A stretch of DNA of 60,477 nt, filler included, from Hausera hauseri (taxonomy: Eukaryota), in assembly GCA_046269625.1 (NCBI GenBank). It is 11 parts of 11 records of this genome, joined end to end, with 100 filler letters (N's around TTAATTAATTAA, not from the genome) between each part and the next. Parts side by side here need not be neighbours in the genome. Positions count along the whole stretch, not along the records: positions 42,023 to 47,594 come from JBJURY010228185.1; 10 more parts are not named here. One strand, given 5' to 3'. Below, one piece after another: positions 14,351-60,477 of the stretch. The position numbers and the translations under genes were made by a program. Below the pieces are notes generated by a model. That model had not been told where the DNA came from and did not search any database. It saw nothing but the letters and a program-made list of their open reading frames with translations. Numbering within the stretch: position 1 is the stretch's first letter; each line of letters starts with the position of its first letter.

Positions 14351-14439
14351 CTGTTTGATTTTACAGTAAATCTTTTTTTGATTACTTCGTATGTCATACC
14401 AATAAAAATTTTTAATCTGTCTTATGATGTTTTTGTTAG

Positions 14440-18370: not shown

Positions 18371-18972
18371 TTTCATCGTTGTGACTTAATGTGCAACGAA
18401 TGTTTGATGATTAATCACAAAGAATGTATCATGAATGAGTACCGAATGATTCATCTCAAGTCAAAATATGAAAGCAAATTGTAATAATTCTTCAATATAA
18501 TTATTTATTTCTGTTAGTAGATCGCGTTTCTACTATTCCGACCTCAACGTCACTCGATGATTGTAAGATTGAATTCTGCATAAGAAATTTATTATAAATG
18601 TTTGTATAACAATTATCTCCTTCACTCATTAAATGATTCTTCTTTTCAACCTGTTTTTGAATTTCCTAAATTTATATTGGCTGTTTATTGATTTAACTTT
18701 GAATTAAATTTAAACATTAATATTCGTTTAAATTCCTCCTCATAGTACTAAAATACTTGTCGCGGACTATACTACACATAATACACAAATAATTTGTACA
18801 ACTTTAATTTAAATTCCTTAACGTAATTCATGGAATTCTAGATTTTATAAAAATAATTTTTGGACATATTTTGGACATCCTGTAAGAAGTATCCAATATA
18901 AATTTAATTAATTATTTACGTAAAATTAATAAACTTCATTTAAACAACAAAGGTTATAAATTATCAGTTAAA

Positions 18973-24251: not shown

Positions 24252-24692
24252 GAGAAAACCATAAATATATTCATTGAACTGTAGACGTAGTGCCGTCATA
24301 CTTCCAAAACAATAAAAATTCAAATGTAATGTTCCCTGATACAACTTGATATATAAATATATATCCTTGGTTAGATTCGAAAAATATACAATACATTACT
24401 TTAAAAATATTGCATATTTGATTTATTTTAATAATTGGTTATGTAATGTACCAAGATCACTACACACATCATAAAGTGATATTGGTACATTACATACCCA
24501 ATTTTTAAAATAAATCAAATATGCAATACTTTTAAAGTATTGCATGGTACATTTTTCGATTCTAAGCAAGGATATATATTTATATATCAAGTTGTATCAG
24601 GAAAAGTTACATATTTTAAATCTTTATTTTTCTTAGAACTATATGACGGCACTACGACTACAGTTCAATTAATATATATATATGGTTTTCTC
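24252..24692. repeat. ~440-bp foldback / MITE-like inverted repeat
   Basis: Arms of ~210 bp (gagaaaaccata..ctgtagacgtagtgccgtcata.. / ..tatgacggcactacgactacag..tatggttttctc) around a ~12-nt loop near 24465. Confidence 0.92.
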
Positions 24693-30049: not shown

Positions 30050-33000
30050 GAGGGGGTTCTGGTCTGGCGCGGTCCCTTCCATCTACTTAGACTTACAGAA
30101 TTCCAAGGATGTTTTCAGCACATGGATGCTGACCAAATTCTCTGAATATATAGTGCTGCTGTGGACGTTGGGCTTGTCAATGAGCTTCTATGCCCGCTTC
30201 CACACACAGACCAACTCTATGTTGATCCTGTTGCGGATATTCGCCATGGTCTTGCCAAAACGCTGTTATTATACAGCTTAAACTGGACCTTCTCAAAATC
30301 CTTCTTGGCATTAGCTTGCATCTTCGTATTGAGGTCTATGTATGTCTGCAGCCATATGGTATAGCTAAACTGCAGGGTCCGATGGAACTTATTAATGCTC
30401 AGTCCATTCCTGACCGTTTGCTGGAGATTTATGTACAGGACTATGTACCTCTCCCTACTATCAGATGGCAGAGTAGTCTTTGACGTTTTTCATGGGGTGG
30501 AGGCTTGCTCTCAGACAGGAAAGACAGCTGTTCACGCCTCGTATGGATATTATGTGTATATTCAACATCCACATCCAGTATGTAGACCGTATTTCCACTG
30601 GGATCCAAGTCCAGTATAGGGATGTATTCAGGATGCTGGAACCACTTCAAGTCATCATATGACAATGGGACGCTTATGGGTAGGCAATATATGAAGATAC
30701 CTTTGCTCGATGGTATTCAGCCATACACTTGTTATTGGCCTCACTATACCTGTGAATGGCCTGGCATATTCCGCCTCTAATGCCTCGCTCAATCATGAGG
30801 ATCATGTCATAATCCTTTATGATCAGTAGCCTAATACCGGTATATCTCAGCATTGCTGCCAAACTCATCCCTGGATCCGTGAAGAAATAAGGTAGATTCA
30901 ATGCACGGCTCTTCATCGTAATATCCCGAAGCTCTCAAAGACATACGTCAGCAGTAGCACATCCGTCATGAGGTGTATATCGCTGTATTCTCCTAATTCT
31001 GGGCATTGGAATGCTTGCCAGATGTTCTGGGCATGCTGGTATTCCATATTACTGATATCGCTATCTGAGGGGATATTGTAAAAGTCCTTGGCCGGCAATG
31101 AGGTCTCATCCAGTGTTTCCAATGATGTTATGTAGTCACAAGGAAACACGTTTTTCCTCTTGACTATGCCAAATGTAGTGGAAAAGAACCGCTTCGTCTC
31201 CTTTAGTTCTTCTGCATGGAGGTTTTTCACTAAGCCGTCAAGTGAAGGTGACATGAAGCGGTAGCTCTCTACAAAGTGAAGTCGGACTTTGTCGACATAC
31301 TTCATGAAGGTGACGTATTTTTCTTCACTGTTTGCGTTGACATCAATGTTTCCTTCAACGTTTCCCAATGCTCGGACTATGAAACAGGAATCATAGGTAC
31401 TGAGATTGTTGAACACTACAGGCACATATGTACATGTCTTGCAGCGTAGATTGCAGTTGTTGCATGCCTCGTCTCGATATTTTGCCTGTAAAATGACAGT
31501 GATCCCTCACTTTCTAATTCTCCATGGTAAAAGACGTCTCGCAAAAGTAACATGCTGTTGCCTTGCGCCATTCTTCTTATTGCTTCTTGAACATGCTCAT
31601 TTTATTCTTATTCTGTTGCAACATATCTCCAATCATATGAGCCATGTCTTCAAATCGATTCATAAAATGAGCTTCTGCATTTGGAACCCTGAATAGATAT
31701 GGTTCACTATGTAGTCCTTTGGCATACATGCAATATGATGACAGCTCATGATATTGGTATGCCGTTGTGCTGGTACGTTGGGTATTGGGGCTTCAACTCT
31801 GAATTGGACGCACAGTAGCCTCAAAGTCGCGTTAGATTACTATTGGGACCTTGATCTTCTTCTCGAACTCCTTAAATTCAGTGTAGTCCTCACTGGGAAA
31901 TTCTGGCCTGATACAGCAATTGTTGTTGCAGTACATATTGTACTCTGCAAGCCTGCCCAATGCTGCATCACCACCGAAATGGGACAAGCATCGCTTACAG
32001 ATTTCAATTCTTCCATGATTTGTTGTTATTTGGGATCTTACTAGACGTTCAAAATTCTTTATCCAAACATAATGCTTCTTTTCTCAATCATCTGGTAGGA
32101 ACAAATCCCTATGTTTGTCCAATTCAGCATCACATATTTGCAGCGGATATAATTTGTTCTCCTCATCCAATCCAAAGATATTAATGGAAATGTTGATTTG
32201 TCCAAATTTTTTGACTTCATCTATGGATGGCGTAAACTTAATAAATTGGAAGTCATAGTTATTCTGCACATCCTTATATAGCCAAATTCGTAAAGAATGT
32301 TTTAGATTCGTTACGAGTTTTGATAAAACGGCATGCATGAAACACATGTTGTCATCATTATGGACATTGATGCATAACTTTTTCTGCTGAATCCATTTAG
32401 GGAGCTGAATATGGGAATTGCCCGCATGGGGGAAACTAATGCACGTGCACACAAATTCTGTTGATGGCTGTCAAGGTCCATTCGCTCTTCTTATCCTGGC
32501 TGTCCTCAGCCTCATGGATCAGCTTCGCATGCTCCTCATATAACCATTCTACTATATTAGTGCCTTCCAATATGGGCCTATCTTTTGCCTATTTTGCCCT
32601 TTTGGATTCTTCGCCATCAACACTAATGTATGTGGCCTCCAGTTTCATATTGACCTTAAGGGCCTTGAGCTCCGCCATGTTGTACTGGAGAATCCCTATT
32701 GTTTCTTCCGCTGTGTATAAGAGGAACTCTTGGATGGTTGTTTGGCCAATTGCTGCAATGACATAGCTGCGAACTTATCTCTTTAGTGCTGCAGCCTCAA
32801 CTGGCCGCTGTCTTTGACTTTTGAATGCAGCATCTGAAATATCTGCTGCTACGCGTTTTAGTCCTGTATCGGGCTGTGCGGCTACATCTGGCTTTGCTGC
32901 CACAGGAGGCTGCATTGTTGCAGCATTTGGCTTTGCTACCGCAGCAGGCTTTGCTGCTACAACTGCCTTATGCTGCTCATTAAAGATGGCCTTCTCTGAC

Positions 33001-33340
33001 TTTGACTTGAAGTCTGTTAAATGGGCAATATGATCTTCATAAAACGGTATGTATTCTCCATTACATACATCCTCACATCCTGGGCAAATATATTACAGGA
33101 TGCTGATGAATTTGTATTCATGGTAGCTTTTCATGGTATTATGACGTTCTGAGGGTTGTGTATTGCACATATATTTGAGCATAATTTTTTTTCGACTTGG
33201 TGAAAGAAATCATGTTTATGTCCATTGTCAAAGTCTTCATAATTGGTTTGGCACACAACCTCACATGTAGGGCATATGTAATACTCATCCCTGTTGTAAA
33301 GATGGCCGTGATTTTGGAAATAACAAAATATGTAGCCATA
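30050..33340 (-). mobile_element. polB: Protein-primed PolB family B (Cys/His N-terminus, endonuclease VII-like zinc finger, exonuclease, polymerase), 3'-truncated and decayed
   Basis: SHIQLPKWI..INVHNDDNMCF, RDHCHFTG, PVVFNNLSTYD, KNVFPCDY, TDVLLL, IERGIRGG, YNNSVFGKTM. Confidence 0.88.
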
Positions 33341-33747
33341 TCAACACATTGCCTAATTTATGGATTTTTTAAATTTTGAATTTATTGATTGAATTTTCGT
33401 TTATTTTCGAATATTCTAGAACACTTCCTTTTAATGCGTCAAATCAAATGAACGTCGGAACAAATTTCGATTTTCTTGTAGGTTTTTGGATATGGGGAAT
33501 AGAGTGATGTCATTAGATACTTTGAATAACGTACGCTTGACCGAATTTTTGGGTTCGAATAGCTAAATATTCGACTTTTAAGCTCTATTTCGAATATATA
33601 ATTTTATATTCAAATTCGCTATATATGGCTTCCTATCTGTATGAGCTNNNNNNNNNNNNNNNNNNNNNNNNNNNNNNNNNNNNNNNNNNNNTTAATTAAT
33701 TAANNNNNNNNNNNNNNNNNNNNNNNNNNNNNNNNNNNNNNNNNNNN

Positions 33748-38339: not shown

Positions 38340-39420
38340 GGGGAGGGATAATCGATAAAATGAATATTGCACATGTACCAATCTATACTGCACATGCAGC
38401 ACTATCGATCGGTAATGTGCTAAGCACATTTTTATACATTTCACAAATCGACTCCTGCACATTGCACAAGTGATCGAATCGATCGGGACAAAGAGCTAGT
38501 CGATAGTGCACATTAGTGCACATCGATTGGTGCACATTGCAGGTGCACTTCACATGTGCAAGTGTGCAAAAATCAATAATATCGGATGCAATCGAGTGCA
38601 CATACGATGCACTATGTGAATGTGCAATTAGAATTTAAATCGATCGAATGGTTTTCGAATAAATACCAACTGAGGGAGAACATGCATAGGCCTCTCCGGT
38701 ATAAAATAAAAATCGATAAAATCGATACTGGACATATACTGATCGGTAGTGCACCTGGTGCACATGTGCAAGTGTGCAAGAATCAATAACATTAGTTTTC
38801 CGATATTTCCAATATGGATGATTATCACGCGACCGGGTGTGTTTGAACACAAATACGATGCACTATACGAATATGCAATTAGAATTTAAATCTGTCGATT
38901 GATTTTTGAATAATATCGACCAAAAGTGCAACTGGGGAAGAATGCCCATAGGTTTTATTTGCCCTAAGAAAACAAAATTCGATATTACATTTAGCGGGGA
39001 CAGATAGGAAACCGAGTATGTAGATCTCGAATATCGAGTCGAATATTCGAAATTCGAACATTTTTTGGCTCGAATATCAAACTTTTCGAAAAATCTAACA
39101 ACGGCATTCTATTTCCCATGTCCGAAAACCCCTTGACGCATTAAAGTTATGCCATAAAAATGTGCTATATAGATATAAAATCAATAACTCGAATTAAGCA
39201 AAATGTGCATTTCAAGCTCAATGAAGCTGAAATCGATAAATCTTTAAGCGGGGCTGGATAGGAAGCCATATATGGCGAATATGACATCATATATTCGAAT
39301 TCGAGCTTTCAAGTCGAATATTTAGCCATTCGAACTCGAAAACTCGGTCAAGCATGCATTTTTCGAAGAATCTGATGACGTTATTCGATTTCCCATGCGC
39401 GAAAACCTATAAGCAAATCG
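38340..39420. repeat. Degenerate ~210-260 bp tandem duplications rich in TGCA/TCGA palindromes upstream of polB family B
   Basis: tacgatgcactat..gcaattagaatttaaatc twice (about 38600, 38855); cacatgtgcaagtgtgcaa.aatcaataa twice; agcgggg..gatagga..tttcccatg..gaaaacc twice. Confidence 0.8.
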
Positions 39421-39660
39421 AAATTGGCGCTGACATGCATTTAATCTATTTGATGCATTAAAACAAAGTGTTCTAGAATGTTCAAGAAATGAACGAACTT
39501 CAATAAATTCAAAATTTAAAAAATATATAAACGAGGCAGTGTGCGTTGATAGAGTTATACATTTCATTATTTCAGAAATCAGTTTCAAGAATGGTGAGTT
39601 TTTATTTGTGCTCGTCAAATAATTGGTTGATTTTGGATTTGCAAACTCTAGAAACAGTGC

Positions 39661-41922
39661 TTGGCTCAAATCCATGAGCCTGAAAATTGTAACAATATTA
39701 TGAAGAAATATTTCAGCCATCTTTACAACAGGACTGAGTATTATATGTGCAATACATGTGAGGTAGTGTGCCAAACGAATTATGAGGACTTTTACAATGC
39801 CAATAAGCATCACCTGATTTTATTCACCAAGTCGAAAAAACAGATATTCAATACGAATATGCCAATAATGACTTTCACGCCTAAGCAAAATCAAGGACTC
39901 AGTTTATACGTGCAATTCAACCCTCAGAACTGTCATAATACCATGAGGATATACTATGGATACAAATGCAAGTGGGTCCTGTATTATATTTGTCCAGGAT
40001 GTGAGGCTGTATGTGATAGAGAATACATGCAGTTTTATGAAGATCATATTGCACATTGGACAGATTTCACGTCAAAGTCAAAGAAGGCCATCTTTATTCA
40101 GCAACATAATCTTGATGCATCTGCTTCGCAATATTCTGCTCCACATTATGCTGATGGATCTGCTGCTGCAGCTGCGAAGCATATTAGGGAATTTAAACGC
40201 GCAGCCGCATCAGGTGCAGCCACATCAGACGCAGCGGCTCCACAAAAAAGTCATAGACAGCGGCAAGTTGATGCTGCAGAATTAAAGAGCAAATGCCGCA
40301 GATATGTTATTGATGCAACTGGCCAAACAACCCTCCAAGAGTTCCTCTTATACACAAAGGAAGAAAAAGAGTGAATTTTTTAGGACAACATGGCGAAGCT
40401 CAAAGCTCTTAAAGTGAACATGAAACTGGAGGCCACATACATCAATGTTGATGGCAAAGAATGCAATAGGGCCTTCAAGACCAAAAATAGTCCAATATTG
40501 GCTGCAGAATGGAACACAGAATGGCTGCATGTGGAACACAGGAAGCTGATCCACGAGGCTGAGGAGAGCCAGGATAAGAAGAGCGGCTGGACTCTGTCGG
40601 CCATACAAAGAGTTCGTGTGCATGTGCACAAGTATTCCCCCATGCGGAGCAGTTCCTATATTCAGTTCCCTGAATGGATTCGGCAAAAAAGCGCATGCAT
40701 TAATGTCCATAATAGCTATAACAAGTTCTTCAAGTATGCCATTCTATGTAAACTCATACGGGATCACATAATGCTTCACGAGTTTGTCTATGTAAGGATG
40801 TGAAGCACAACTATGACTTCCAATATATTAATTTCCCACCATCCATAGACGAAGTCAAAAAATTCGGGAAACTCAACAAAAATTCTATCCACTGCAAATA
40901 TGTGATGTTGAATTGGAAGATCATAGCGGTCCGCTCCTACTAGACGATGGAGAAAAGAAACATTATGTTTGGATCAAGAACTTTGAGCGTCTAGTCAGAT
41001 ATCAAATTACGAAACACACAACAAGAATTGAAATATGCAAACGATGCCTGTCCCATTTTAGTGGTGATGCAGCAGTGGACAAGCTTGCAGAGCACAAAAT
41101 GTATTGCAACAATAATTATTGTATCAGGCCAGAATTTCCCAAGTAGGATTACATTGACTTCAAGGAGTTCGAGAAGAAGATCAAGGTCCCAATAGTCATC
41201 TATTGAGACTGAGGCTATTCTCAGGCCAGTTCAGAGCTGCAGTCCTAATCCACAACATAGCAGCACAACGGCATACCAATATCATGAACTCTCATCATAT
41301 TGTATGTATGCCAAAGGATTGGACAGTGAACCATATCTATTCAGTGATCCAGGCGCAGCAGCTCATTTCATGAAGGGACTTGAAGGCATGGCTCACAGGA
41401 TTGGAGATATGCTGCAGCAGCATAAGGATACAATGAGCATGTCGAAGATGCAGGAAGAAGAATGGCGCAAGGCAACAGCATGTTACTTGTGCTCAAAACC
41501 ATTCACTAAGGATAATTATAAAGTCAGGGATCACTGTCATTTTACAGGCACATATCGAGGCGCGGCATGCAACAACTGAAATCTACGTTGCAGAACATGT
41601 ACATTTGTGCCTGTAGTGTTCCACAACATCAGTGGCTATGATTCCCACTTCATTGTTCGGGAGCTGGGAAACATTGTAGTAAACATTGATGTGATTCCCA
41701 ATAGTAAGGAGAAGTACATCACCGTTACAAAACATTTTGAGAAAATCAGTCTCCGCTTCGTAGACAGTTTACGTCTCATGTCGTGTTTACTTGACAGTTT
41801 AGTGAATAACCTCCCTACAAAAGAACTTAAGTAGACAAAGCGGTTCTTCCCCACTTCATTTGACCTCGTCAAGAGGAAAGGCGTGTTTCCCTATGACTAT
41901 ATAACATCATTGGAAATATTGG
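39661..41922 (+). mobile_element. polB: Protein-primed PolB family B, 5' part, decayed
   Basis: KSGWTLSAI, MRSSSYIQFPEWI, HYVWIKNFERL, CYLCSKPF..VRDHCHFTGTYRGAAC, PVVFHNISGYDSHF, KGVFPYDY. Homologous to 31100-33340. Confidence 0.88.
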
Positions 41923-42022: not shown

Positions 42023-45000
42023 TGCCAAACTAACTGATTGCTAACAACAGCATATCATCCTCAATGCAATGGTAAAGTCGAAAGATTGAACTATACCGTG
42101 CAATGTATATTATCAGCTATGATAGACAAGACGCAAAAAGATTGGGACATCCACTTAAAAGTTGTGCAGTTTGCAATAGCAACCACACCTACTAGCTCAT
42201 CAGGATATACACCATTCAAATTAATGTATGATAGAAATCCATTGCTGCCAATGGACATCCAATTATCACCAGAAAAGAAAATACCTGAAGATTAGTCTGA
42301 TGAAGAAATACACGAAAGCGTTGCAAACAGTTTAGCAAATTGTTGGGAAAAAGCTAAACAAGCCATCAAACAATATAAACAAGAATATCAAGAGTACTAT
42401 AATAAAAAAGCTAAACCTCATAAATTCCAATCAGGTGATAAAGTAATGGTACATTACCCAGTAGCGAAACCAGGAAAATCATTGAAACTAACCCGCACAT
42501 TTAGGAGACCCTACTTGGTAGTAAAGCTCACACCTGAGAACATATTTATTGAAAAGGGCACTGGTAAAAAGACCAGAATTAAATGTATATTAGCCCAAAG
42601 AGTTACAAAAGGACCCAAAGATCCAAAAGTTAAAGAAGAACCTCAATACTCATTGCGATCATCGAAACAATTAGTTTTAAACCAGCTTGTAATTTAGAGC
42701 CGTTATTCCTTATAATCATGATTTTTGGCCTAATACTATCAACCACGGCACAAACCTTGGAAACAGACCCTATAAGTAAAAACTTAGAATTACGAGCAAA
42801 ATTGCCTGGCAAAATTCATTGGAATCAGTAAATGGACTATTCGTAGGAGAATCAAAGTACAAAGAAATCACTCAACTAATCTTACCACCAGAAATTAATG
42901 ATGCGATTTGGTTATCAACTAAACGTTGCTCAATCCCATTATTAAATGAGATCTGTCTTGTAGACCTTTACTTTCTAACAACTGAAATGTTATTGAAACC
43001 CAAACAGAAAATCCTGCCAATAGCAAGACAGGTATACGTAGAAAAAATTGGCCCTACCTTTTTCTTTACACAAGAAAAGGACAATGAACCAAAACTAATA
43101 GACAAGGTCATGATAAAAAGACCGACCTTAACTAATGATGTTGATTTACAAATAACATTATTTCCCAAGATTATTCAAACACAAGTTTGGCGAAAAAGCC
43201 TTAAACCTCCATATTCATATGCCATTACTGCAATTCTTTAAAATGAGACAAGAAATAATATCAACTATGACCACCTTATCTCCAACTAGTAATAACCCAA
43301 TTACTATATTCAACCTGAATAAAATACCCAATGTTACCATGATAGCAACAGACTCGTATATTGAGTTTAAAGTCTTTCAATTACTAGACTATCCTATTTC
43401 CATAACTTGTGTAGGAAAATATCATATCATATACGCCACCATAAAAAGCACGAAAGAATAACTAGATGCAGTGACCTTCAGCCTGACGAAGAGTATCTAA
43501 TCGTTTTCACTCAACACCATGCTGTAACAAGACATCGAACAATTAGAACTCAAACGAGAACTATAAAAAATTTAGCGCTTGAAGAATTTCTAATCTATAC
43601 AACCATACATCTAGTAACTAGTCCCACCACTCAAACCAATATGTTGAAAATCTTAGTACCCTCCATAATAATAGTATTCCTTCTACTGTCCATATCCACG
43701 CCGTTCGTAATAATGGAACTAAAAAGACTTTCTAAAAAACGAACCACTATGAATAAAACTTTCTTACTATCAACCAATCTAATATGTTTAGTAGGTTATA
43801 GTATGGAGTGGATAGTCGACGTTGAGGAATATAAAAAATTCAACCTAAACTATAAATATCCAAAAATACAAACAAAACAGTTGTATAAATTAGCACACCT
43901 TCAAAAATCAAAAAGCTTATACACACATAATTATATAACACATCAAAAACCAATAAAACTTGACTACAGAAAGTCGAGTACCACACATATTCAAAGACTA
44001 TATGAAGCTAATCACACCGTTCAGATTTCTTTTCAACAACAACAAAGTATGGAAACAAATTATTTTGACCTGGACTTGGATTTCTCAGCAGATAACAGTA
44101 TCAGCTCCGATGACTCAACCGAAACAGTAATCATCAACCCCAAACGAAGGGTCATTTTACCAGAAGAGGAACTAACAACAGTTCCCCAATCTGCAGATCA
44201 ATCGACAAATAATATATCAAATTTTACCTTTCGCAACCCATTACAAAGTGGAATTTCCAGAGGAATCCTAGCATCATCAAGTAATAAAAGAAATTGTCTA
44301 AGTTGGGATCCACCACGAAAATTTACTGCAGAAATCAGACGTAAATCCTTTACAATGGACGATCTAACACAACAAAAGAAATCGAAACTCTATGATCAAT
44401 TGGTAGAAAACGTCGAACAACTGGAACGAGATAGAATAGACAAAAGACCCTGGAATGAATTATATAACAAATTCGTTAAAATCTATCAACCAGAGAGGAA
44501 CATTTTTCCTTCCAAGTTCTATGCTCGATTTCAAGAACTAGCTGAAACATCTTCAGACATCTTTTATCCAGAATGTCGCTATATTGATAACACACTCAAA
44601 AACACAACAATTAATGAAAGATCATTCAGGATACTGCGTATTGAAACCCCTTCAATGAATATAAACCTCAAATCTATGTTGCATATAGACCAACAATTTG
44701 ATAAAGTCCTATGGCATGTAGCCCAAGGAAAACTACAATTCAAAGCAGATGCTGATATGTATGACGAATTAAGATTACAGAACTCATTGCTAACGTCCAA
44801 AATGACAATGAGTATCAAGGCTCCATCTTTCCAAACAAAAATACTAATGCGAATATTATTAACACCAGTAATCATAGGAGTCAAAATTTGTCAACTTTTG
44901 GATATCCACCTAGGTCTCCAGCCTCCAATATTCTATCAAACGCCCAAAGAATTGAATATGTGCAACTATCGGCTAACCAAAGCCAATAACTTTCGATACC

Positions 45001-46366
45001 TAGCTGTCTCGCTAGCTTACGCACCAAACGGTGATCCTATTCCCATAGAAGTAATTATAGCAGACAAAGCTAAATTGGTTATATTTCATGCATTCATTAA
45101 TCCACGAAGAAAAGTGGCGAATACCAACGAGAATCACCGTGGACTGTCAATGGCTTTAATTCAACAAGCCAAAGATGAAAAAATAGTCCGATCAGAGGTT
45201 ATCAAGTATTTATATGGATATATCGTAATTAGTGCTAACACCAGCACAATATTGAAGGTACTTCGTATACCTTCCACCTTTGCCTATGGTATGATGGATA
45301 TATTATCTACACCAAATACTAAAGCCCGCTTTGCCGAGGCTAAAATGAAACCAAACCTGACACAATTACCAAAGATGTATAATCTAATATACGAATTTCC
45401 AAAAGCTGCTGAACCTATCTTACAGTCCATTATCGAAATACATAACCAGCTGTTAGAAAACTGCACAAATGAATAATGGGAATGGAATTGGATCCCTCCA
45501 GATAACAACCTAATCAGTGACGAAGGATTTATGAAAATACCAAAACAATACCATAAAGACTATCAATATGAAGAATTACAGAAAGTAGATGAAGCTAACC
45601 AAAGCTCAACCTGTGAAAATCTAATACAACAAATGAAATGTAATACAATGAAATTGCTACAAAAAGCAATAAGTAAAAAAATTCTTATTCAATAGAACTA
45701 TCAATATTGTTATATGGACAAACACAACAAATCATTAATGCCCAGTTCATGCAAAAACATCTAACGGTTATAAACCAACATAGACAAATCCAGCCTAACC
45801 CCAGGCTCGGATCAATAGTTGAAATAGTGTATAAACACTCCACGAATAATACACTACATTTAGCGATAGTTGGGGCCCAACTTGAGACTATTAAAAGTCT
45901 TGACCACGAACCGGTATTGATAAATCAACCAATACCTATGCAGTTGGACCTAATTCCCACCCCTAAACCAAGGGGTACAAAGATCATCAAGTTGCAAGGA
46001 ACCTCCAGAGAAAAACTGAAGATGTTTTTGTATCAAAAAGAAGGCCGATTCCTATTGGAAAACGTTTACAACATTGAGGAGATAGTTCAAAACGAAGAAG
46101 AAATGACTAAAGACAGTATACCAATTCAATTTTGATATACCATTTTCTTTGTGTTTTTTACTGTATAATTCTCTCTATCTTTTATGTTTTATTGTATCTT
46201 ACATTTGTATTGACATTGTCGTAACTTTATTGACATTTTGTTTCTCTTTATGTCATATATATTATCACATTCTTAAAGTTTCTTTTATATACTGTCTTTG
46301 CTGATTTTTTCGAATAACCCAATAAAAACTAATTTTGTAACCAAAATTTTTTAAAAGGGGTAGAAA
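42023..46366 (+). mobile_element. 3' part of a Ty3/gypsy element: IN, then ~3.4 kb extra coding region (signal, FN3-like, TM, DEDDh-like), then PPT
   Basis: TAYHPQCNGKVERLN, GYTPFKLMY; post-IN region similar to 51776-52900; PPT aaaaggggtagaaa at 46353-46366. Confidence 0.85.
43407..45476 (+). CDS. 689-aa open stretch of the post-integrase ORF: FN3-like end, TM (43650-43715), cytosolic region, REX4/ISG20-like exonuclease fold (44991-45450)
   Basis: CSDLQPDEEYLIVF; ILVPSIIIVFLLLSISTPFVIM; VIFHAFINPRRKV....RGLS..LIQQAKDEKIVRSEVIKYLYGYIVISAN..ILKVL. Confidence 0.65.
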   Translation: MCRKISYHIRHHKKHERITRCSDLQPDEEYLIVFTQHHAVTRHRTIRTQTRTIKNLALEEFLIYTTIHLVTSPTTQTNMLKILVPSIIIVFLLLSISTPFVIMELKRLSKKRTTMNKTFLLSTNLICLVGYSMEWIVDVEEYKKFNLNYKYPKIQTKQLYKLAHLQKSKSLYTHNYITHQKPIKLDYRKSSTTHIQRLYEANHTVQISFQQQQSMETNYFDLDLDFSADNSISSDDSTETVIINPKRRVILPEEELTTVPQSADQSTNNISNFTFRNPLQSGISRGILASSSNKRNCLSWDPPRKFTAEIRRKSFTMDDLTQQKKSKLYDQLVENVEQLERDRIDKRPWNELYNKFVKIYQPERNIFPSKFYARFQELAETSSDIFYPECRYIDNTLKNTTINERSFRILRIETPSMNINLKSMLHIDQQFDKVLWHVAQGKLQFKADADMYDELRLQNSLLTSKMTMSIKAPSFQTKILMRILLTPVIIGVKICQLLDIHLGLQPPIFYQTPKELNMCNYRLTKANNFRYLAVSLAYAPNGDPIPIEVIIADKAKLVIFHAFINPRRKVANTNENHRGLSMALIQQAKDEKIVRSEVIKYLYGYIVISANTSTILKVLRIPSTFAYGMMDILSTPNTKARFAEAKMKPNLTQLPKMYNLIYEFPKAAEPILQSIIEIHNQLLENCTNE

Positions 46367-47310
46367 TGTGAGAGAATGATAGAAAAACCTTAGGAATGTT
46401 TTATTTCTTATTTATTATTTAAAAAAAACTTAGGAATTAAATACAATAATTAGTGTCCAATAAATTATGCACTTTAAAGTCTCATTTAGTTGATACACTT
46501 GTAAGTAACGAGACAGTATAGACTCATAAATGTTGTATGTTAGCATAAGCCAAACTGTCAGAGTCCAGTAACCAGCGTACTATGCTGCATGATATGTTGG
46601 AGAGCATAGCGTCAGAATTTGGTGACTAACGTACTGCAGTATGGCTAGAAGGTATTCACATGCATCGTTGGTCAAGCAAAGTGATACCACACAATATATG
46701 TTTATCATGGATTCATCAAAAATTAATACCACATAATTTAGTGTCGAAAAATAGTACTAATATACAGGGTAGTAAAAGTAGGTAACTAAACCAAAAATGA
46801 AAACTACACAAAGTATAGTTTATCAAACGAAAAACAATATAAAACCACGCAATTTAGGATCTTTACAAATCTTTTAAATAAACACAAAACAAAACCCCGC
46901 AAATTAAATAGGATATATATACTTAGCTTGAAACTTATTTAATCGCACAAAAATTGATGTCAAAATAATAATTTTTGGCCATTGTACTGTGCCGTTTAAT
47001 TCGGATACAAAGCTACAATCATTCCTATTCAAATTCACTTTTGTTCGGCAGAATCAGCAAGACGGTTTTTTTTCTTTGTAACACTGCTTGCTGTGGTTTC
47101 AATCCAAATAAATTCTGGTATTCGTTCAATTATTTGATTTTGAAGGAATCCTACGGAGATTTTGTAAGTATTTTAATAATCTATTTACGTGTTCATTTAT
47201 TTATCTTCTTCGTGAATAAATAAATTCGTTCCCATTAATTAAGAGCGACAGCAGCCGAACTACTAGTAGGCCAAGCTATTATACACAAAGTAATTAAAAT
47301 ATTACAATAG
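46367..47310 (+). repeat. Probable 3' LTR (starts TGTGAG after the PPT; right end uncertain)
   Basis: TG directly follows the PPT; non-coding with AATAAA signals. No second copy in the window to confirm. Confidence 0.5.
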
Positions 47311-47694
47311 TAAATAATTCTCTCTTGATTGAAATCCTTTCACTAGAGTGTTTTAAAAATCCTTATACAAGGGATCTCAACAAGGAAAAACAATCAAAGT
47401 TTCATTAACCATTTATGAAAAATTTTCTAAGAAATTTAAAAAACAGAATTGAATATTTAATTTGGATTATTGAAGAAAGATTAGAATTTTTCTTCGCAAG
47501 AAAAGCCATTGATAAGGAGATAAAACATCAACAAAAGTTAAATCAGCAACAAAGCTTTTAATAAGAGACAAGAATCCAAATTTTAACTTTTGCANNNNNN
47601 NNNNNNNNNNNNNNNNNNNNNNNNNNNNNNNNNNNNNNTTAATTAATTAANNNNNNNNNNNNNNNNNNNNNNNNNNNNNNNNNNNNNNNNNNNN

Positions 47695-49640: not shown

Positions 49641-52600
49641 AAACAATGAAAAATAAAACATCACCGAGCCATACGTCGGAGGGGTTGTCAATTGCGCTTG
49701 GTAATATTGGGAAAGGCACCAAGCATATAGACGTTTGAAGAACTGCCAAAGTCGGCTGCTTGGGGGCCTCCGTACACAAGTAAACGGTTTTCTTGTAGGT
49801 TTGGGGAACCAGTTCCACGCCTACTGTAAATTAACACACAGACAGAAGCCATGGGGGATTTGGGGAGATCAGGTGTGGTAGCATTTTTCGGGGATGAGCG
49901 GTCGCACTTGGTCAGTGGCTCGAACCTGTCCGTCCACCTTGACCTCCCAAGTTCAGTGTATGGATCCCAGTAGCCATCTCCTAGTAACAGTCTCGACCGA
50001 CTGGCTAAACTACACTGAGCGCCCTGGCTCATGTTTGTGTGTCTGTGGTTTCCCACAGGCCTCAGACAGCGTGACTGCAAGACCATTCCTCATTCAGCAC
50101 TCTTAGTGAAGGCACCAGGGTGCATGACGTGACGATCCCTTTGATAGAGCACATGATTTCCCAGAACAAACATGGTTATATCCAGGATACAGCGGTCATC
50201 GGATGGCGGGGAATGCACAATGGTGAGCCCACTGGGTCTGTAGCTCCTGGAATGTGGGATGACTAACAGTAGGAAGGGGTTGAAATCGGGGACACACCAG
50301 CAGAAGCAATTTGGAGCTAGCAAAGGAAAATAAAATACTCCCCAGTGATTAGTGGTACAATGCCCACCATGCCCTGCACAAACTGCATGGGATAGAGGAT
50401 AACTACCGCCCCCTCCCCCACCCGACTATATTTATGCCCTACCATTTGTTCAAAAAAAAAACGAGCTCGAGACCCACAGACTACAGCAGGATGCAGACAT
50501 TGTACACACCAAAATGAGACAGTGAAGCACCACCTGCTGTCTTGCTCCACACTCCAGGAGCTGAGACAGACTCTACTACCTGACAACCCAAACATAGACA
50601 GTGCCTTATATGACAGACCACAGCAGTTTATTATAACTGCGCAGTACCACATACTGGCATCAAAGTCAACAAGAGCTGACACCTGATGACTGTGAATCAA
50701 AGATAAGACAAGAAAGAAGCCGTACCGAAAAGGGATGTATATTTCACAATAATCATCAGGTACCAAGCCATGCAGCGTAGGCTGCCTTAGATCACCATAT
50801 CTAGCGCTTTTATCATGTCTCCAATCATTTCAACCATTGATCGTTTTTCGATCCACCTTGTCACTTCACTTTCATAATATGCGCCTCCACGTTGTTCATG
50901 GATCTATATTTAGTATCATAATTAGGCCAACACCAGAAACAAACTGTTTTCAAATTTCTTGTACGAAACAGCTATTTAAGTTTAATTTCTCTCAACACTT
51001 GCATAAATTCGCCATTCTGGGTTGGCGTTTATCAGACATCGTGACAATATTTCACGTAATGTCACGCTATTTAACGTCTGTGCCACTAGCCTCGCATAAA
51101 ATTATGACAAGGACATTTTGCCACAGAAATAATTGCTTATCTCCTCCATAAAACTTCAGGCACGACAAATTTAATGGTCGTAATATATTACGGTACCGGG
51201 TGTCATTATACGAAGCTTTACATGGAAGAAGTTATGTGGAACCCTAGGGCATTTTTCCTAAGCGAAGAGTTATGAGACAGGCAGAAGTGTGTCCCAAATA
51301 TTTAAAAAATATATTCATATACCCCTGTAATAGTGTGTTGATCGTAGCTCACAAGTTATCCATTTAATTTCATCAGTCGCCTCCCCTTTTGGTTTGTGTT
51401 CACCTGCAGAGCAGAAATCACGCTTTAATGAGTGAATTCTCATAAAAGCCACCGGATACGCTGAGCTTATTAAAAAGACACTGAGCTGTTAAATCGACAC
51501 TGTGAAGGACGGTTGTAAATGTATTTTTAGGCCACAATTTGGTTATGTTAAAACTAGTACCGAAATAGAGATTTATTTTATGAATAACAAAGTTGTGTGT
51601 GGCCAGAACGAAACTGTCGATGTTCTATGTTGTTTAAACCCAGACCATGGAGAACGTATGCTGCAGAATCTTTTGNNNNNNNNNNNNNNNNNNNNNNNNN
51701 NNNNNNNNNNNNNNNNNNNTTAATTAATTAANNNNNNNNNNNNNNNNNNNNNNNNNNNNNNNNNNNNNNNNNNNNTACTGAGATCATTATATGGCATTAC
51801 TTCAGTTTTACTGCCAATAGTTCGTACTTTAAAAGTTTTAGGGTTCTTACCCTTTGCGGTAATTCTGATTATATAGTCATGTTGCGGCCGTAAGGACCTG
51901 CATTCAGTTTCCTGACTATTCTTTCTCAGGATCACAACTTGATTGGTATGCCAGGTGCGACATTCAATTTTAACGTCTCGATTTAACGTTTCTTCTGCAT
52001 AGAATAGAATTCTATCACTCTTGCCAAAATCTTGACTAGTATGTTTCCTGGCATTTCGTCTAAAGTGACGATCGTAGTAGTGAGAGTTGTACTTGGAACT
52101 GTAGATGGTCTTCTCATAGTGGTTGGGAAGGAAAGCTTTTATCTTCCGATTTTTGGACGCTATCCTCTTAAATAAGTGATTTATTCTCCGGGGTACTTAT
52201 TGTACAAGTCGAATTGTAACTGATAATCCTGTCCTGGTTGTATTACACAGCACGTGGTGGATCGGCGTCTGGCCAGGTAACAACATTTCGGGTTAGAAAT
52301 AGAAGCATTCAATGGTATAAATCGGACTGAAATTTGCCTATCTTCGGGCAGTTCCACCTTAGTTTTGATTCGAATACATTGGTTTTTTAAGTCCTTTGAA
52401 ATTCCAATAATCTTATAGTATAAAAGTCTCTTAAACGGGTCAGTGCTTCGGATTATTTTGTCCATCTTGGCATGGTTTGCGTCCTTTCGTTGGGGCATTC
52501 TTATTAAGAGTTCTGTAATTATATAAGCTTGAGCTCCAAACTGATTAGAATAAAACATTTAAAATCTGTACCCGTAGGCTTGTCCAAAATCTAAATCACA

Positions 52601-52999
52601 ACATCTTTTGTAATGTCCGTACGGAAAATCGCATGTCCTTATCGTGGATCTAGTTACAAATATTATTTGAAATTTCACATAACTCTGAATGGGTTCACTT
52701 GTTTCAAACCACGCACATCGTTTATTCCATTCCATATCGTATATTCTAAATGGCTGTAAGTTTTGGATATCTCTTCGTCTTTCCGCATATTGTAATTTTT
52801 CAGCTTGATTTATCGATTTCACCTTCGATATATACGAAGCGATTAACGGTAAGGCCAAGACTATTTGCACATAAGATATTGGTCTAGTCACTATTGATGA
52901 TGTTTTTGTTTCTTTATTTGTTTTGCACGAACGCAAATTATAGCGTTTGTATGGTCTTAGTTCCGTTTTAACTACTCTCCGAATTGATATTACCTCTTC

Positions 53000-55900
53000 C
53001 TTACCGTTTTTATTTCTATAAACTGTAGTTGGCATAATCTTGGTAACTTCACAAGATCTTCTACCTGTCCTGGTAAGCTTAAGAGATGTGCCTTTCTTTG
53101 ATACTGGATAGTGTACGTAAACCCAGTTTCCGGGTTCTAGATCGTGTGGTTTAGCCTTCTTATCGTATTGCTTCTTGAATTGTTCCTGGTATTCTTTGGA
53201 TAATTCCTTGGCTATTTCCCAACACTTTTGTAACCTCGATTATAATACTTGAACAAAATTCTGCTCTAGATCTTCCGTTTTTGTTGTGAGGGAATTAATC
53301 CTAAATCTGTAGGCAGGACAGCTTCTCTACCATACATCATAAAAAACGGAGTGAATCCTGTTGCAGGATGTGAAGTCGTATTAATGGCAAACTGTGTACC
53401 TTCTAAGAACTCATCCCAATCTTTCTGGTCTTTTGCGACTACTGTCGATAAGATTCGTATAACTGTCGCGTTCATTCGTTCGACCATTCCGATACATTGT
53501 GGATGATAAGCTATGGTAGTTAGTCGTTCGATCTCAAAAAGTTTGGTAATTTTGTTGAACAATTCGCTCGTAAAGTTCCTTCCTCGGTCAGTCAAAATTT
53601 GTTTGGGTGTCCCGTATCTTCAAATTATCTTCCGGACTACTAATTCTGCCAAGGTCTCGGCCTTTTGGTCTACTAACGTTATAAGCTCAACAAAGTGAGT
53701 TAATCTATCTACTCAAGTCAAAATATATTTATTGTTTTTGTGGATCGTAGGTAATGGTCCTAGAATATCCATAGACATTGCTTGCATTGGTCTATCGGGC
53801 ACGTTGATAGGCTTAAGCTCGCCGGCGTAGTTTTCACTTTCCTTTGTTTGGTTGCGCATACATCGCAAGCGTTCACCCAATTTCTCACATCGATATAAAT
53901 GCTCGGCCAATAGTACTTTTTTAATATCCTTTCCCATGTCTTTTTCCACGACATGTGTCCGGCTAAGTATAAATTATGTTCGGCCACGAGTACTTCTGTA
54001 CGCAATCCTTTTGGTATTATACTACCAATTTTCGTTCCTTTCGTTCGTAGTATAACACGTTTTCGTGGTTCAAATCTCCAACAACGCAGTATTTGCGACC
54101 ATATCGTCGTAGGTGTTTTCGCAGCTGATGACTCTTGAGTGTTACATTGGTGTAAACGAACTCGATAATCTGTTGTATAACCTTATCTTTTCTTTGTTCA
54201 ACAGCAATCTCCAATGCCTTATCCAGTGTGAGAGTTCGTTGTCTCTCTACCAAATCTTCAAGTTCGGCTTTCCTTATTATCATAACTGCGCTGGTTTTGG
54301 TTTTAAGTCTCGATAGTGCGTCGACGTCGACATGTTTATTTCCTGGTTTGTATTGGAATTCAATATTGTAACGTGAGATCTCTTCGATCCATCTGTTAAG
54401 TCTATAGGTAGGATTATTTGCTCTACCCTTCGAAGTCGTAACTGCCTTATGATCAGTAACGATTACGAACTTCTGTCCGTATAAGTATAGGTTAAAATGT
54501 CGCAGGGTTTCTTTCACCGCTAGCGTTTCTAACTCCGTGACGGAATAGATCTTCTCTGCTTTCTTCAAAGAGCGTCCTCCATATGCAATCTGGTGTTCTA
54601 GATCCTCATCCTCTCGTTTTTGAGCTAATTCATATCCGATGCCTTCCTTACTGGCGTCTGTTTTGATTATGAACGATAGATTAAAGTCAGTATATCTTAA
54701 AACAGGTTCACTAATCAGAATTTTCTTCATTTCATCTAAAGCCTTTTGTTCGACGTCGGTCCATTTCCATTTGATCCCCTATTTTAGGAAGCGACATAAC
54801 GATACCTTTATCTTCGCGTTATCTGGTACGTAGGTGGCGTAATACCCACATAACCCTAACCAGTGTCTTAATTCTTTTTGATTCTGAGGTTCCATGCAAT
54901 CTTGTATCTTGCATAGTAATGATTTTTCAGGCTTCGACCCTCCTTCTACAACTATGTGTCCAAGGTACGACACAGCATTCTGAGCCCATTTGCATTTCTT
55001 GGGATTCAGCTTTAGTCCAACTTGTTCCAGCCTCATGAGCGTACCTTCAATGTCCTTTAAGTGATCCGCTTCCGTCTCTGACGCAATCATGACGTAATCC
55101 AAGTAAGAGAACGCGTGTTCCAGTCCCATAAACATTTAGTTCACCATGCGGGTGAAGATGGCTGGTCCGGTGGTTATCCCGAATGGCATTACGTCGAATT
55201 CGTATAAGCCGTCGTGTGTCTTAAATGCCGTCTTATATCGGTTTTCCTCCTCTATCTCTACTTGCCATTTAGCTCCAGAGAGTCTGTCCAAGGCTTCCTT
55301 TACCGATGGTAACGGAAAAAATTCTTTCATCATATGTGTGTTTAGCGCTCCATAGTCAATACTAAATCGGTGCTTAGTAGTACCTTTCTTCTTAACCATA
55401 ATTATAGGCGAGTACCAAGATCTATAGCTTGGCCTTATTATGCCGGCTTTTAACATTCGTTCAACCTCTTTGATTATCTGTGGTCTTAGTGAGTGTGGAG
55501 GAGGGTACCATTTCGGCATCCTTTGATTTTCCAAATCTATTTCGTCGTTCGATAAAGGCTTTTTCTTAAGTGGAATCGTGAGTCTTAAAATCTTGGCTCG
55601 GCCAATATCTTCTTCATCTTTCGCCATAATTGAGCTATAACGACAAAGTAAGTCGTAAAATCGGCAGTACGATTCCGGTGAGAATTTAGTCTCAACGTAA
55701 GGTGGGATTTCGACACCCTTATAAATTTTCTTTTCTATAGTAATTGGAGATATTCTATACGTGTGTCCCAAAGTGGTATTGGCGTACAGTTTGGTCGGAG
55801 TTGGTGCATTATTCGTTATTCTGTTTGGTACGTGGCCTGTTGATAATCTTGTCAAAATATTGCTGAGTACAAGGTTTGGATTAAGTAATTCTTTCGGCTC

Positions 55901-56400
55901 GAAATATACTGGCTGATCGTCATCTTGATGTATTTGGGTATATATGAGTACTTCCGTTCTGGGCGGTATGTTTTTATCTACTGGGATCCACACTTCTCCG
56001 AACTTCCTTTCTTTAATGGTTTTAATACCTTTTATTGGGCCAAGTTCTATCAACATGCCTGCATTGAAATCGATTGCTATATTGGGTAGTTATCTCAATA
56101 AGTAGTATCCTAATACCATATCATCCGTTAACCGCTCCATTACTGAAAATTCCTGGTGAAAAGATTGTCCCATTATGTGAATCTCTGGTTTCTATCGAAA
56201 TTTACTTTTTGATGATTGTCCGAAGGCTTTCGGTACTTCCTGAATCTGTCGTAGGAGGTGGATACAATTGTCCTCGTAAAAATTTCGGTATTGAATCGTA
56301 TTTTGTCAATGATATTTCGGATCCTGTGTCTATCAGCGCATATACTTCCCAATCTTGTAATTGAATTTTTGCAAAGGGTGTTCCTTCAATTATTGTACAG
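53000..56400 (-). pseudogene. pol: pol (PR-RT-RH-IN), copy B
   Basis: Gypsy domain order. RT has an 11-codon deletion removing the LDL catalytic motif, and YLDD is changed to YLDY. Confidence 0.93.
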
Positions 56401-57089
56401 TAATAGTTTGGTGCCACATGACGGCGTCGGATCGTGGATATTTTGTAACCATTAATGGTGACTTCTGTGGTTTCGACTGGCTTGTCAATCAGCTGCCTTA
56501 ATTCTTCGATTAGGTATAGTTCATTAGTCGCGCCACTCGTGTTTTCTGCTCTTTGGTTTCTAACCGGCGACTGAACATCTTGGTTTCGGAGATTTCGTGC
56601 CTCACAGCTTCGAGTAAATGTCGATTGCGTTTCGTTTGGCTTAGTTATTCTAGGTGAGTAAATTATACCGTGGTAGTCGACTGCGGATCGAAGGGGTGGA
56701 GCCGAGGTCTCCTCCGTTTCGTGGATCTTGCGCAATATCCCATAGCGTTTTGTTTCTTCGTAAGGATCCTCTAAACTAAATAACTTTCAATAGATGTCTG
56801 TCTGGCACGAGCTCGTAGATTGTTTCTCGCAGTCGTCATATATAGTTGCTGTTGGCGGCAATATTGATAGTGGTAGTTTCGTAACAGAGTAATTTTTGTG
56901 CCTACTCGGCCTGAGGATGACGGCTCCCCCTTAAACTCGTCATCATCGGAATTTTTTTTATCGTGTTTTACTGACTATGAATTTTTGCCTATAATTGAAT
57001 AGATGTCTTTTACTTTTTCGGTTATGGTAGCCAACATGTCGCTCCACATCTCTTTTCCATCTACTTTCTTCATAAGCCTTTAAGAATTT

Positions 57090-58890
57090 GCCGAATGGTG
57101 TAATAACAGCCGTTAAAATTTTGCACGAAAACCCTATCAAGGTGAATATCTCGTATCCATTTATGACTGCTTGAATTATAGCTTTTACTAGTTAAATTAA
57201 GAAGTATATTGCTAAAAATCTTGATGCGGCTTGTCCGAATATTAGGAATCTTCCCCAGATTTTATATAATATTTCCGTAGTTACCTTTCTATCATAGCCA
57301 ACACTAAGTAATGACTTCCATTTTGCCTGAGAGCAAGAGTCCTCTAGTACTGTATGCATCGCTCTGTTTAATTCATGTGTACGTTGGGGGGGACAAACAA
57401 GAAATTGTTTAAACGCCTCTACTTCTTTTGGTCGGTAAATACCTTTTGTGGCTGTATCCTAAAATTTATCATCGGTTATTCCTTTTATCAGGTTTGTTCC
57501 TGTCAGATTGGTAGGTGGTGCGATAATACCACCGTTCGGTAGACTTACCCAGTCGGTCTCGCTACGTCTGAACATCGACTCTCCTAAGCTAGTTTTACAG
57601 TCTCTCAAAATTGTCGGTTGAGTGGCATTTGCCAACAACACTGTGGTAATCGGTGTTACTAATCTCGTACGTCCTGATATATCACTTGGAGTTCTTGTAT
57701 ACACCTTTTCTCTTTTACATTAATCGGCACGTCTTTCTTTTCACATTCATAGGTCAATAAGACCTCTCGAGTTACTCGTCCAAAAACGCCCTTCTTTATT
57801 GGAATTACTGATGATGCCAACTCCGGATTGGCATATATCAGGGACAGCTTAATTGTCATGATTTCCAAGTTTAATTTACAGTCATTTGTTATCATTTTGT
57901 GGTACAACTCGGCAATTCCGGCTTGTCCTTTATAGTAAAAATAGTCGTCTCTGTTCTTCAAGTAGTCTTCAATCCGGATGTCCTGAGTCTAGAGTTTGAA
58001 CGTTCTGGCGTTTATTTCTGTCGCGGCTACAAAAAATGCTTCATGGTTGGTGGCATACATTACGACGTCGCATCTGGTGAGCACAGATTTCTTTACGTTT
58101 TAATCCATGAGTATAAGAAATCAGTATCGTAGGCGTAGATGTTTAGGCTACATCTTCTAGTATTTTAGAATTAGTTTCCATTCTACATATTTATCGCTTT
58201 CATGTCTTCTCGTTGAATTTAGGTTCTTTGATTCTGATAAAATTGCAATCGGTCTTGCTGGCGGTTCCCAAATTACCACGGAACCTCGAAACGGGCATGT
58301 GCCATCTTAAATGTATCACTTGTGGTTCTCGGTGTAAAGTTTGGTAACGCTATGAAACAACACTTTCTGTATACGCATTTATGTTTCGTAAAAATCCACT
58401 ACTACGATGTTTGACTCTAACCCCTATACGGTATCGTATTCCGCACCGCAACAATGTCGGGTGTGCATATATAGTCTTCCTGCTGGCACTTTATTCACTC
58501 TGATTATTTTCCCTTGCTGCATTTCCATCTCCATACAATCTCATTTTATTCGCCCCGTTTTTCTAGCTTGCTTACAATGCTGTCGCTCTAAATTCATCGG
58601 AATTAGTGGGGTTGTTGGCTTAATTATTGACGTGTGTCCATGTACCAATCCACAATGGAAAATGCTGCGAGATCGCCGCAAAATACATTCTACTCCATTC
58701 AAGGTAAGTAGTTCGCGTTGCTGATATAATATATAACTTTTCGCTTTTGTCTTTAGTGTGTGGGGCCTCGCGTCATCGCACATTTCCAAGTCCATTAACG
58801 AATATTTTCGGCCAAGTCTGATTTTGTCACAATCATATACTGTGACTGCACCCATAAACATCATCATTGTCAAAAAATTGATTAGCCAGT
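57090..58890 (-). pseudogene. Chuvirus-like glycoprotein, copy B
   Basis: AVTVYDC..YSLMDLEMC..RSIFHCGLVHGHTSII; LYHKMITNDC; EVLLTYEC; IWGRFLIFGQ. Confidence 0.8.
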
Positions 58891-60477
58891 TCGATTCATT
58901 TCCTCTGCGATTTCCGGTTACATTTCATAGCAGATCTCCGAATCTATTGTTATCGAAGAAGAATCCACTCTGATGCTCTTCTTCTTTCTCCAATACCTTA
59001 GACCAGTCCACTTCTCGAGGCATTTTCCTGGTAACCTATCTTGTCAAACTAGTAGCTTTGCTAATTTCATTTTCTCGGTTCGGGTTGGTTTTGATGGCTA
59101 GATATAGCAACGCTTTTCTTAATTCTTCTATGGTATTTTCTACCATAATCTTCTCGATTATCGTTTCATTGCTTAAGGTACTTCTGGATAATTTATATCG
59201 AAGGTTTTTCATAGCCTTTGCGGAGTTAACTATGGCCTTCTCCTTCTCATCTACTACATCACAGCCGAGATTAGAGTGGTTCACTACTCGTATCAAAATT
59301 TTCATAAGTTCGTTCAGTTCCTCATTATCCGCATTAAAGGTTGGTATAGACATTTGTTTGAACTTCCTGATTAAATCTCCATTATAGTCGATTTCTTCCC
59401 GCGTTTTTCGTGGTCTACCGACAGGACGCTTCCGTTTTGTTACAGTAGGTATATTTCCATTGATCGACACTAATTTTTTATTGTATTGCTCATTATATTC
59501 ATCTGTCTGCAGGTACTCAAAATATACTGATGCATCTCGGACTCCTATTATTTGTCCTACCTGCTGTTCTGCTTTAGCCTTCCTTATAGCCTCTACCTTT
59601 GTTTCGTCGATAGCAGTGAATATCACTAACCAGTTTATTTCGTCTGGAATAATTCCAACCTCTATCAACAACTCTGACTCGTCTAGTATCCTTCCTCTAA
59701 AATAAAGTCTATATCTCAGCTCATGGACGTATCCATTTTCCTTCATCCACAGTAATACATCCTTGACAATGGAGCGCATAGTAAACTCTTGTTCTCTCTC
59801 GTCCATCTAGTCTGATACTATATTTACTGAAATCATTTCCTCTGCCTTTGCCTTTAAGATTTTAGCATATTCCTTAAGTAAAAGCTTAGATACTGTACTA
59901 GAAATCGTACCTTTGCTAGCTAACTTAGTTACGGTAGGAACTAAATGTCTCAATTGAATTTCAGTAAGGTTCACTTCAGTTAATTGAATTAAATCTTTCT
60001 CGGTTTGTACCGGGTCCAGGAGCATTTCTACGTTGAACCTTTGGTCTGGAGAGTATATCTCCATTTCCTCCAATCGTATTGGGGTTTTCGGATTCTCGGC
60101 AGTCATTGCGTCTAAATAGGCTTCCCAATCTGGTTCATTTTCATTATCCGGCAGTTGATAGCTCCTCGACGGTGTATTAGTTGACCTGTCTACACCTGCG
60201 GTCCACGTAGTTTTTCTGAGTTTTTGTAGTTTTTGTTGTATTTGGACCATTTTCGTCGTTCGGAAATATCGTCCATTAGCAGACGTTCGGTGGAGCAGTG
60301 TTAACAACGAACATAATTCTTCGGGTGAAATTAATCCATTTTCTTGATATTTCGTTAGTTTAGACGTGACATCTCTTTGCCATCTTTAAACGAATTGTGA
60401 CCTGTCAAGTTTTTCTGCTTCTGTAAGAGCGTATTTGTTTTTATAAACTTCGAGTTCTTTAGCTAGTTCGTCTAATC

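Follow-up and report, generated by a model that had tools for sequence, protein, structure and literature searches.

A stretch of 60,477 nucleotides from Hausera hauseri (GenBank assembly GCA_046269625.1), referred to here as the window, carries on one of its contigs (42023-47594) the 3' part of a Ty3/gypsy long terminal repeat (LTR) retrotransposon with an accessory open reading frame (ORF) on the plus strand. The terminal domain of the encoded protein very probably has the fold of DEDDh exonucleases from the REX4/ISG20/SDN1 group, and the catalytic acidic residues are absent from it. We consider the product to be a conserved pseudo-nuclease that probably acts as an RNA-binding accessory protein and not as a nuclease, a reading to which we assign a probability of roughly 0.55.

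Fold and catalytic motifs of the DEDDh-like domain

The domain is basic, with 21 Lys or Arg residues against 14 Asp or Glu. In the ESM Atlas, the RNase_T set accounts for 27 of its 30 matches, the best having a score of 0.94, 189 shared features and a recognition value of 3513. The third match is named RNA exonuclease 4-like, and rank 13 is one mixed RNase_T/DNA_pol_A_exo1 cluster, with the best matches being DEDDh. When a two-sequence profile of the domain was searched against the PDB with HMMER, four of the five matches were DEDDh proteins, namely SDN1 (E 0.015), ISG20L2 (E 0.029), the PolC exonuclease (E 0.031) and DnaQ (E 0.77). Weak matches were also obtained to Arena_ncap_C in Pfam (E 0.009) and to dnaQ in NCBIfam (E 0.017). 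The fold is assigned because these four libraries agree, no single match being strong; the REX4/ISG20-like DEDDh fold named in a preliminary description of this DNA is thereby supported, by libraries that are each weak in alignment. Comparison with five E. coli DEDDh domains by hhalign was not significant, in a test without power, its positive control having been equalled by 51 of 60 shuffles. A match of the nuclease domain to AlkB by the same method (16.5; 1 of 60 shuffles; probability 0.6%) was taken as chance.

DEDDh enzymes are reported to carry four acidic residues in motifs ExoI-III, plus a His (PMC9157404). The REX4-like peptide that had been described as lacking acidic residues is confirmed by translation, from Phe at 44991 through YLAVSLAY to ISANTSTILKVL, and the acids are absent from it irrespective of register. 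In the HMMER register the ExoI Asp and Glu of SDN1 fall on Ala (45003) and Ser (45009), and in the register originally proposed, two residues further on, they fall on Ser (45009) and Ala (45015); both ExoI acids are missing from YLAVSLAY either way. There is no Asp or Glu in 28 residues around ExoII in the window copy, and the Gly-His pair of SDN1 ExoII is likewise altered. The helix KAAEPILQSIIEIH (45402..45443, plus strand), the probable ExoIII equivalent, with a register set by eye from a sequence pattern and outside the HMMER-aligned stretch, contains no Asp. The last 58 residues of the window copy (after 45299) also lack Asp, and have a sole His near the C-terminus. Loss of ExoI by itself is expected to abolish two-metal catalysis. 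Because the residues required in ExoI, ExoII and ExoIII are all missing from the window copy, the domain does not, as judged from its motifs, belong to the active DEDDh enzymes.

Conservation of the loss in sister copies and a remote homologue

Sister copies were compared over 44970-45071, a segment that covers ExoI, using 13 contigs of run X1 and one of run X2; differences near contig ends were not listed. Eleven of the 13 listed differences over ExoI are silent, the exceptions being L>I and D>E; with an expected silent share of 0.28-0.35, the binomial p is 4e-5 to 3e-4. Listed differences in the codons for Ala 45003, Ser 45009 and Ala 45015 are confined to the third position. One subfamily contig (depth 50, about 85% identical) has eight listed changes over seven codons, all silent, and a loose end in the sister data also reads Y-L-A-V-S.

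A remote homologue, P0001 (333 aa), was the single match at E<=0.001 among 1.84 billion representatives (E 1e-6, 27% identity over 231 residues). It scores 50.8 bits against the DEDDh-like domain, the maximum among shuffles being 22.3. Its ExoI reads LAVNLA, with Asp and Glu missing there too. Word-index protein searches, with longer proteins outside their scope, returned nothing or P0001 alone, and no related loci were found in metagenome and viral contigs. No RNA data set was listed as containing the sequence, which is evidence neither for nor against expression.

The preliminary description had set simple decay against a pseudo-nuclease and pointed to the catalytic residues of sister copies as the means of telling them apart. 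ExoI is without Asp or Glu in the sisters as in P0001, and decay of a single copy was rejected for this motif on the silent-site excess together with the missing ExoI acids of P0001. Because the sister changes are mostly silent and P0001 also lacks the ExoI acids, the loss at ExoI is, on these comparisons of sequence, old and maintained. The long frame that contains the domain is intact while the integrase and upstream ORF of the same copy are broken. Contigs of run X1 have a summed depth of 88-484 over the ORF (44058-45461), those near-identical to the window copy having a depth of 5-8; there are clearly many copies, though depth is not copy number. A family-wide loss of the catalytic residues under purifying selection appears quite likely.

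Several results weigh against a conserved dead exonuclease. Every alignment-based fold match is under its curated cut-off, Pfam RNase_T itself (PF00929) gave no match at E<=1, and single-sequence searches of the PDB gave no nuclease. AlphaFold reached a pLDDT of 32 from the single sequence and 31 from two sequences, and Foldseek and VIA-align returned nothing usable for these models. The 13 differences come from few, non-independent contigs of one run and span about 12 codons, and the main contig has 14 differences, six of them outside the listing. Three of the seven best-supported difference rows inside the long frame are silent and four are not; in five of the seven the entire aligned depth differs from the window copy, and such a split is as expected if the window copy itself drifts. 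Summed depth over the integrase and upstream ORF is 7,000-32,000 and falls to the values given above over the accessory ORF; therefore, most family members lack the ORF or are more than 20% different there, and the ORF may be confined to a subfamily or lie in a region that changes fast. P0001 stops short of ExoII, so that this comparison, like that of the sisters, covers ExoI, and ExoII and ExoIII were read in the window copy only. The loss of acidic residues given in the preliminary description is supported at ExoI across sisters and P0001 and, at ExoII and ExoIII, for the window copy.

The host element and other features of the window

The window comprises eleven unlinked contigs whose joints are N44-TTAATTAATTAA-N44 spacers. 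There is no linkage across the spacers, and the other contigs were rejected as genomic context for the ORF; no second copy of it is present on them. The features of the contig that carries the ORF are given in Table 1.

Table 1. Features of the contig carrying the accessory ORF (positions are those of the window)
Feature	Position	Strand	Remarks
Ty3/gypsy integrase, C-terminal part	42038..42697	+	Broken in this copy by a stop at 42293
Hydrophobic, signal-peptide-like stretch	42703..42750	+	Overlaps the integrase end in a different frame; three-frame translation, by eye
Ectodomain-like ORF pieces, shifting frames	42780..43461	+	Breaks near 42796 and 43442; indel rows against sequencing contigs
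Open frame of 701 codons, stop to stop	43371..45476	+	Contains the transmembrane helix, middle domain and DEDDh-like domain
Predicted transmembrane helix	43653..43721	+	Kyte-Doolittle 19-mer mean up to 2.46; same frame as the nuclease-like domain
Candidate start Met and acidic, Ser-rich N-terminal stretch	44049..44354	+	A at -3, G at +4
Middle domain	44475..44957	+	Weak similarity to P0001; phmmer stretch 143-394
DEDDh-like domain (REX4/ISG20/SDN1 group), lacking the catalytic residues	44958..45473	+	172 aa, pI 9.4
ExoI-equivalent strand YLAVSLAY	44997..45020	+	No Asp or Glu
ExoII-equivalent ISANTSTILKVL	45228..45263	+	HMMER alignment; Ile (45249) opposite the ExoII Asp of SDN1
Two short ORFs, 72 and 152 aa	45477..46135	+	Translation
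Polypurine tract	46353..46366	+	TG at 46367 comes next and is the likely 3' LTR start; read from the sequence

The contig begins inside the integrase, which has weak rve_3 and MLVIN_C matches in Pfam and is 53% and 44% identical (E 1e-25 and 1e-21) to the integrase of an element on contig 51776-60477. No 5' LTR partner for the 3' LTR lies on contig 42023-47594. From the integrase at the pol end, the polypurine tract and the TG-starting 3' LTR, the host element is a Ty3/gypsy LTR retrotransposon, and the accessory ORF is placed between integrase and polypurine tract in its 3' part, as the preliminary description had it. The related element on contig 51776-60477 has the order gag-like ORFs, gB-like env, reverse transcriptase, RNase H and integrase; an env was presumably once present in the element studied here too.

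The long open stretch described earlier is present, though its length from stop to stop is 701 codons and not 689. From 43443 it has no stop in 677 codons, against 34-62 stops per frame in the other five. The accessory protein likely starts at Met 44049 and would then have 475 aa; its N-terminal stretch aligns briefly, and without significance, with the P0001 N-terminus (E 2.2). The middle domain alone scores 22.3 bits against P0001 (shuffle maximum 20.4), and gave weak gag-like leads only in the ESM Atlas (best 0.82, recognition 1786). Against 52 AlkB proteins its hhalign score was 11.5, equalled by 40 of 60 shuffles, in a comparison whose DEDDh positive control failed likewise. An AlkB domain has been reported in orchid Ty3/gypsy elements (PMC9289625).

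A pyrimidine-rich segment ending in AG (44060-44091), which by visual inspection alone is a candidate splice acceptor, lies directly 5' of an S-x-D-x-x-I-S-x-D motif that is weakly shared with P0001. The depth of run X1 falls about hundredfold within 43590-44057, an abrupt change from sequence that is very common in the family to sequence that is rarer or more variable. One contig joins 43966 to 45393 and is possibly a deleted variant. Downstream of the long frame, neither short ORF has a Pfam match, and the 152-aa ORF has no NCBIfam match either.

The ectodomain-like ORF pieces upstream (42780-43461) had no useful Pfam match; a likeness of their final portion to fibronectin type III was judged solely by eye. 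A transmembrane helix follows on the same contig. In this element and in that on contig 51776-60477, the segment after integrase, at 42700-43730 (plus strand) and 51776-52900 (minus strand) respectively, holds a hydrophobic signal-like stretch and then an ORF with an end that is fibronectin type III-like by eye; nothing was found by BLASTP between the two post-integrase ORFs. The post-integrase ORF is possibly a second surface protein beside env.

Elsewhere in the window, decayed Ty3/gypsy elements at 225-3943 (plus strand) and 52922-60385 (minus strand), with 52-55% mutual identity, have a gB-like env between gag-like and pol ORFs; the env of these two elements matches Monjiviricetes_fusion (E 3e-16). 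Two copies, about 80% alike, of another decayed element lie at 30900-33650 (minus strand) and 39270-41922 (plus strand), with more at 13161-14355; by eye, its translation resembles the protein-primed B-family DNA polymerases of Polinton/Maverick elements. A 490-codon ORF at 18886-20358 (plus strand) contains several K/R-R-G-R-P-R AT-hook-like motifs, and an inverted repeat at 24261-24681, with 138-nt arms and a 13-nt gap, resembles a miniature inverted-repeat transposable element.

Proposed role and comparison with known systems

Few animal retrotransposon proteins are known to act against host RNA surveillance, and a dead nuclease that is conserved, small and soluble is a candidate for RNA binding and silencing suppression. 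An ancestor of this Ty3/gypsy lineage may have captured a host REX/ISG20-type exonuclease gene. Catalysis would have been lost early after capture, since the 27%-identical relative lacks the ExoI acids too. The basic substrate face, suggested by the pI, would have been retained and would bind RNA, in particular RNA 3' ends, and element transcripts bound in this way could be shielded from host exonucleases or small-RNA factors. By analogy with other dead exonuclease folds, RNA binding by the domain, as suggested in the preliminary description, is reasonably probable; a protective or counter-defence role specifically, of which the anti-silencing decoy of that description would be one form, is a proposal that we hold at somewhat less than even odds. 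More tentatively still, and rather doubtful when taken as a whole, an envelope-bearing Ty3/gypsy lineage may have converted the REX4/ISG20-type nuclease that it captured to a catalytically dead clamp for RNA. Linked to another domain of enzyme origin, and perhaps anchored in a membrane, the clamp would block RNA decay or small-RNA silencing in the host, as a counter-defence protein derived from a host defence-type fold.

The conserved residues of the domain (the ExoI strand, PIE, INP/IAP and YGxI) are mostly core positions, which suits any fold-dependent role, and with the altered ExoII Gly-His pair this would fit a protein-binding scaffold that docks on host REX/ISG20-like nuclease partners, or on the element particle, and binds no RNA. 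We regard such a scaffold as rather improbable; the domain is basic, and nucleic-acid binding is reported for Maelstrom, EXD1 and PML PXL, which are likewise dead DEDD folds. A single polyprotein anchored in the membrane could also have the pseudo-nuclease domain as its cytoplasmic end, after ectodomain, transmembrane helix, tail and middle domain, and the domain would then hold element RNA at membranes for budding or cell-to-cell transfer; this would be compatible with RNA binding. The 106 codons from the helix to Met 44049 are free of stops, which has a chance of 2e-4 by base composition, but they lack the first-position G bias of coding parts (0.12 versus 0.22-0.24), the depth falls about hundredfold right after the helix, the start context at Met 44049 is good, and P0001 was called at 333 aa without an upstream helix. 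Such a membrane tether seems a rather unlikely arrangement.

Three acidic positions are common to the domain and P0001 (E33, D38 and D75 in A2), and might belong to an active site that has been built anew, a proposal made for Maelstrom-type folds, so that the protein would still be a nuclease. However, E33 lies opposite a non-catalytic Glu of the PolC exonuclease, no His or Cys is common to P0001 across the aligned part, and the last 58 residues are without Asp; retained activity is considered very improbable. Hardly better is the prospect that the domain is a neutral relic, a captured exonuclease that is decaying and has no present role. The window copy is broken upstream, and most of the family depth stops short of the ORF, as such a relic would allow, but the silent-site excess over ExoI, the 677-codon run and the same loss in P0001 argue against it. 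We therefore retain the conserved pseudo-nuclease as the preferred reading.

The preliminary description cited exonuclease ORFs of bdelloid rotifer LTR elements as a precedent. These are real: the LTR retrotransposons Juno and Vesta and the Athena/Terminon elements are reported to carry a DEDDy-type ORF3 (PMC5408684, PMC6431247) and, as here, a DEDD-superfamily exonuclease gene forms an extra 3' ORF of a Ty3/gypsy-like element in an invertebrate. However, the bdelloid protein is described as an RNase D-like DEDDy enzyme with intact DEED and no transmembrane region (PMC5408684), whereas the H. hauseri ORF matches DEDDh proteins of the REX4/ISG20/SDN1 group, has lost the acids and has an extra domain upstream. 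The precedent is an analogy and not the same family, and the capture was likely independent of the bdelloid one. REX4, ISG20, ISG20L2 (7yw5), SDN1 (5z9x) and PF00929 provide the best sequence or feature matches, with an alignment of about 110 residues that begins at ExoI and extends beyond ExoII, but the enzymes are host genes with Asp-Glu-Asp-Asp and His (PMC9157404), none of which was found in the H. hauseri ORF. The literature covered, with Repbase, subscription journals and supplements outside that coverage, yielded no account of an LTR element that carries an inactive DEDDh ORF.

The GAG-ENV-POL errantiviruses with gB-type env, reported from nematodes, bryozoans and flatworms (PMC13524379), share the gene order of the element on contig 51776-60477, to which the integrase of the present element is related. 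Unlike the element studied here, they are described in a main text in which the words 'exonuclease', 'DEDD' and 'accessory' are absent (PMC13524379; supplements outside scope), and the env seen on the related, unlinked contig is not on contig 42023-47594. The C-terminal exonuclease of the arenavirus nucleoprotein (PF17290; PMC7968707), the family of the weak Pfam match, is likewise a host-derived DEDDh fold in a viral element that counters host defence, but is an active enzyme of an RNA virus. Maelstrom and EXD1 are cited in PMC5408684 as dead DEDD folds that bind RNA, and the PXL domain of PML is reported as an exonuclease fold without catalytic residues that binds nucleic acid (PMC13659232). 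The function proposed for the H. hauseri ORF is analogous to that of these proteins, which are likened to it by fold and function and not by sequence and, unlike it, are host defence or regulatory proteins and not element-encoded. If the proposal is right, LTR elements would have captured DEDD nucleases a second time, apart from the bdelloid DEDDy case, and the ORF would be the element's counterpart to host proteins such as Maelstrom, EXD1 and PXL, in which dead DEDD folds take part in transposon control or nucleic-acid binding.

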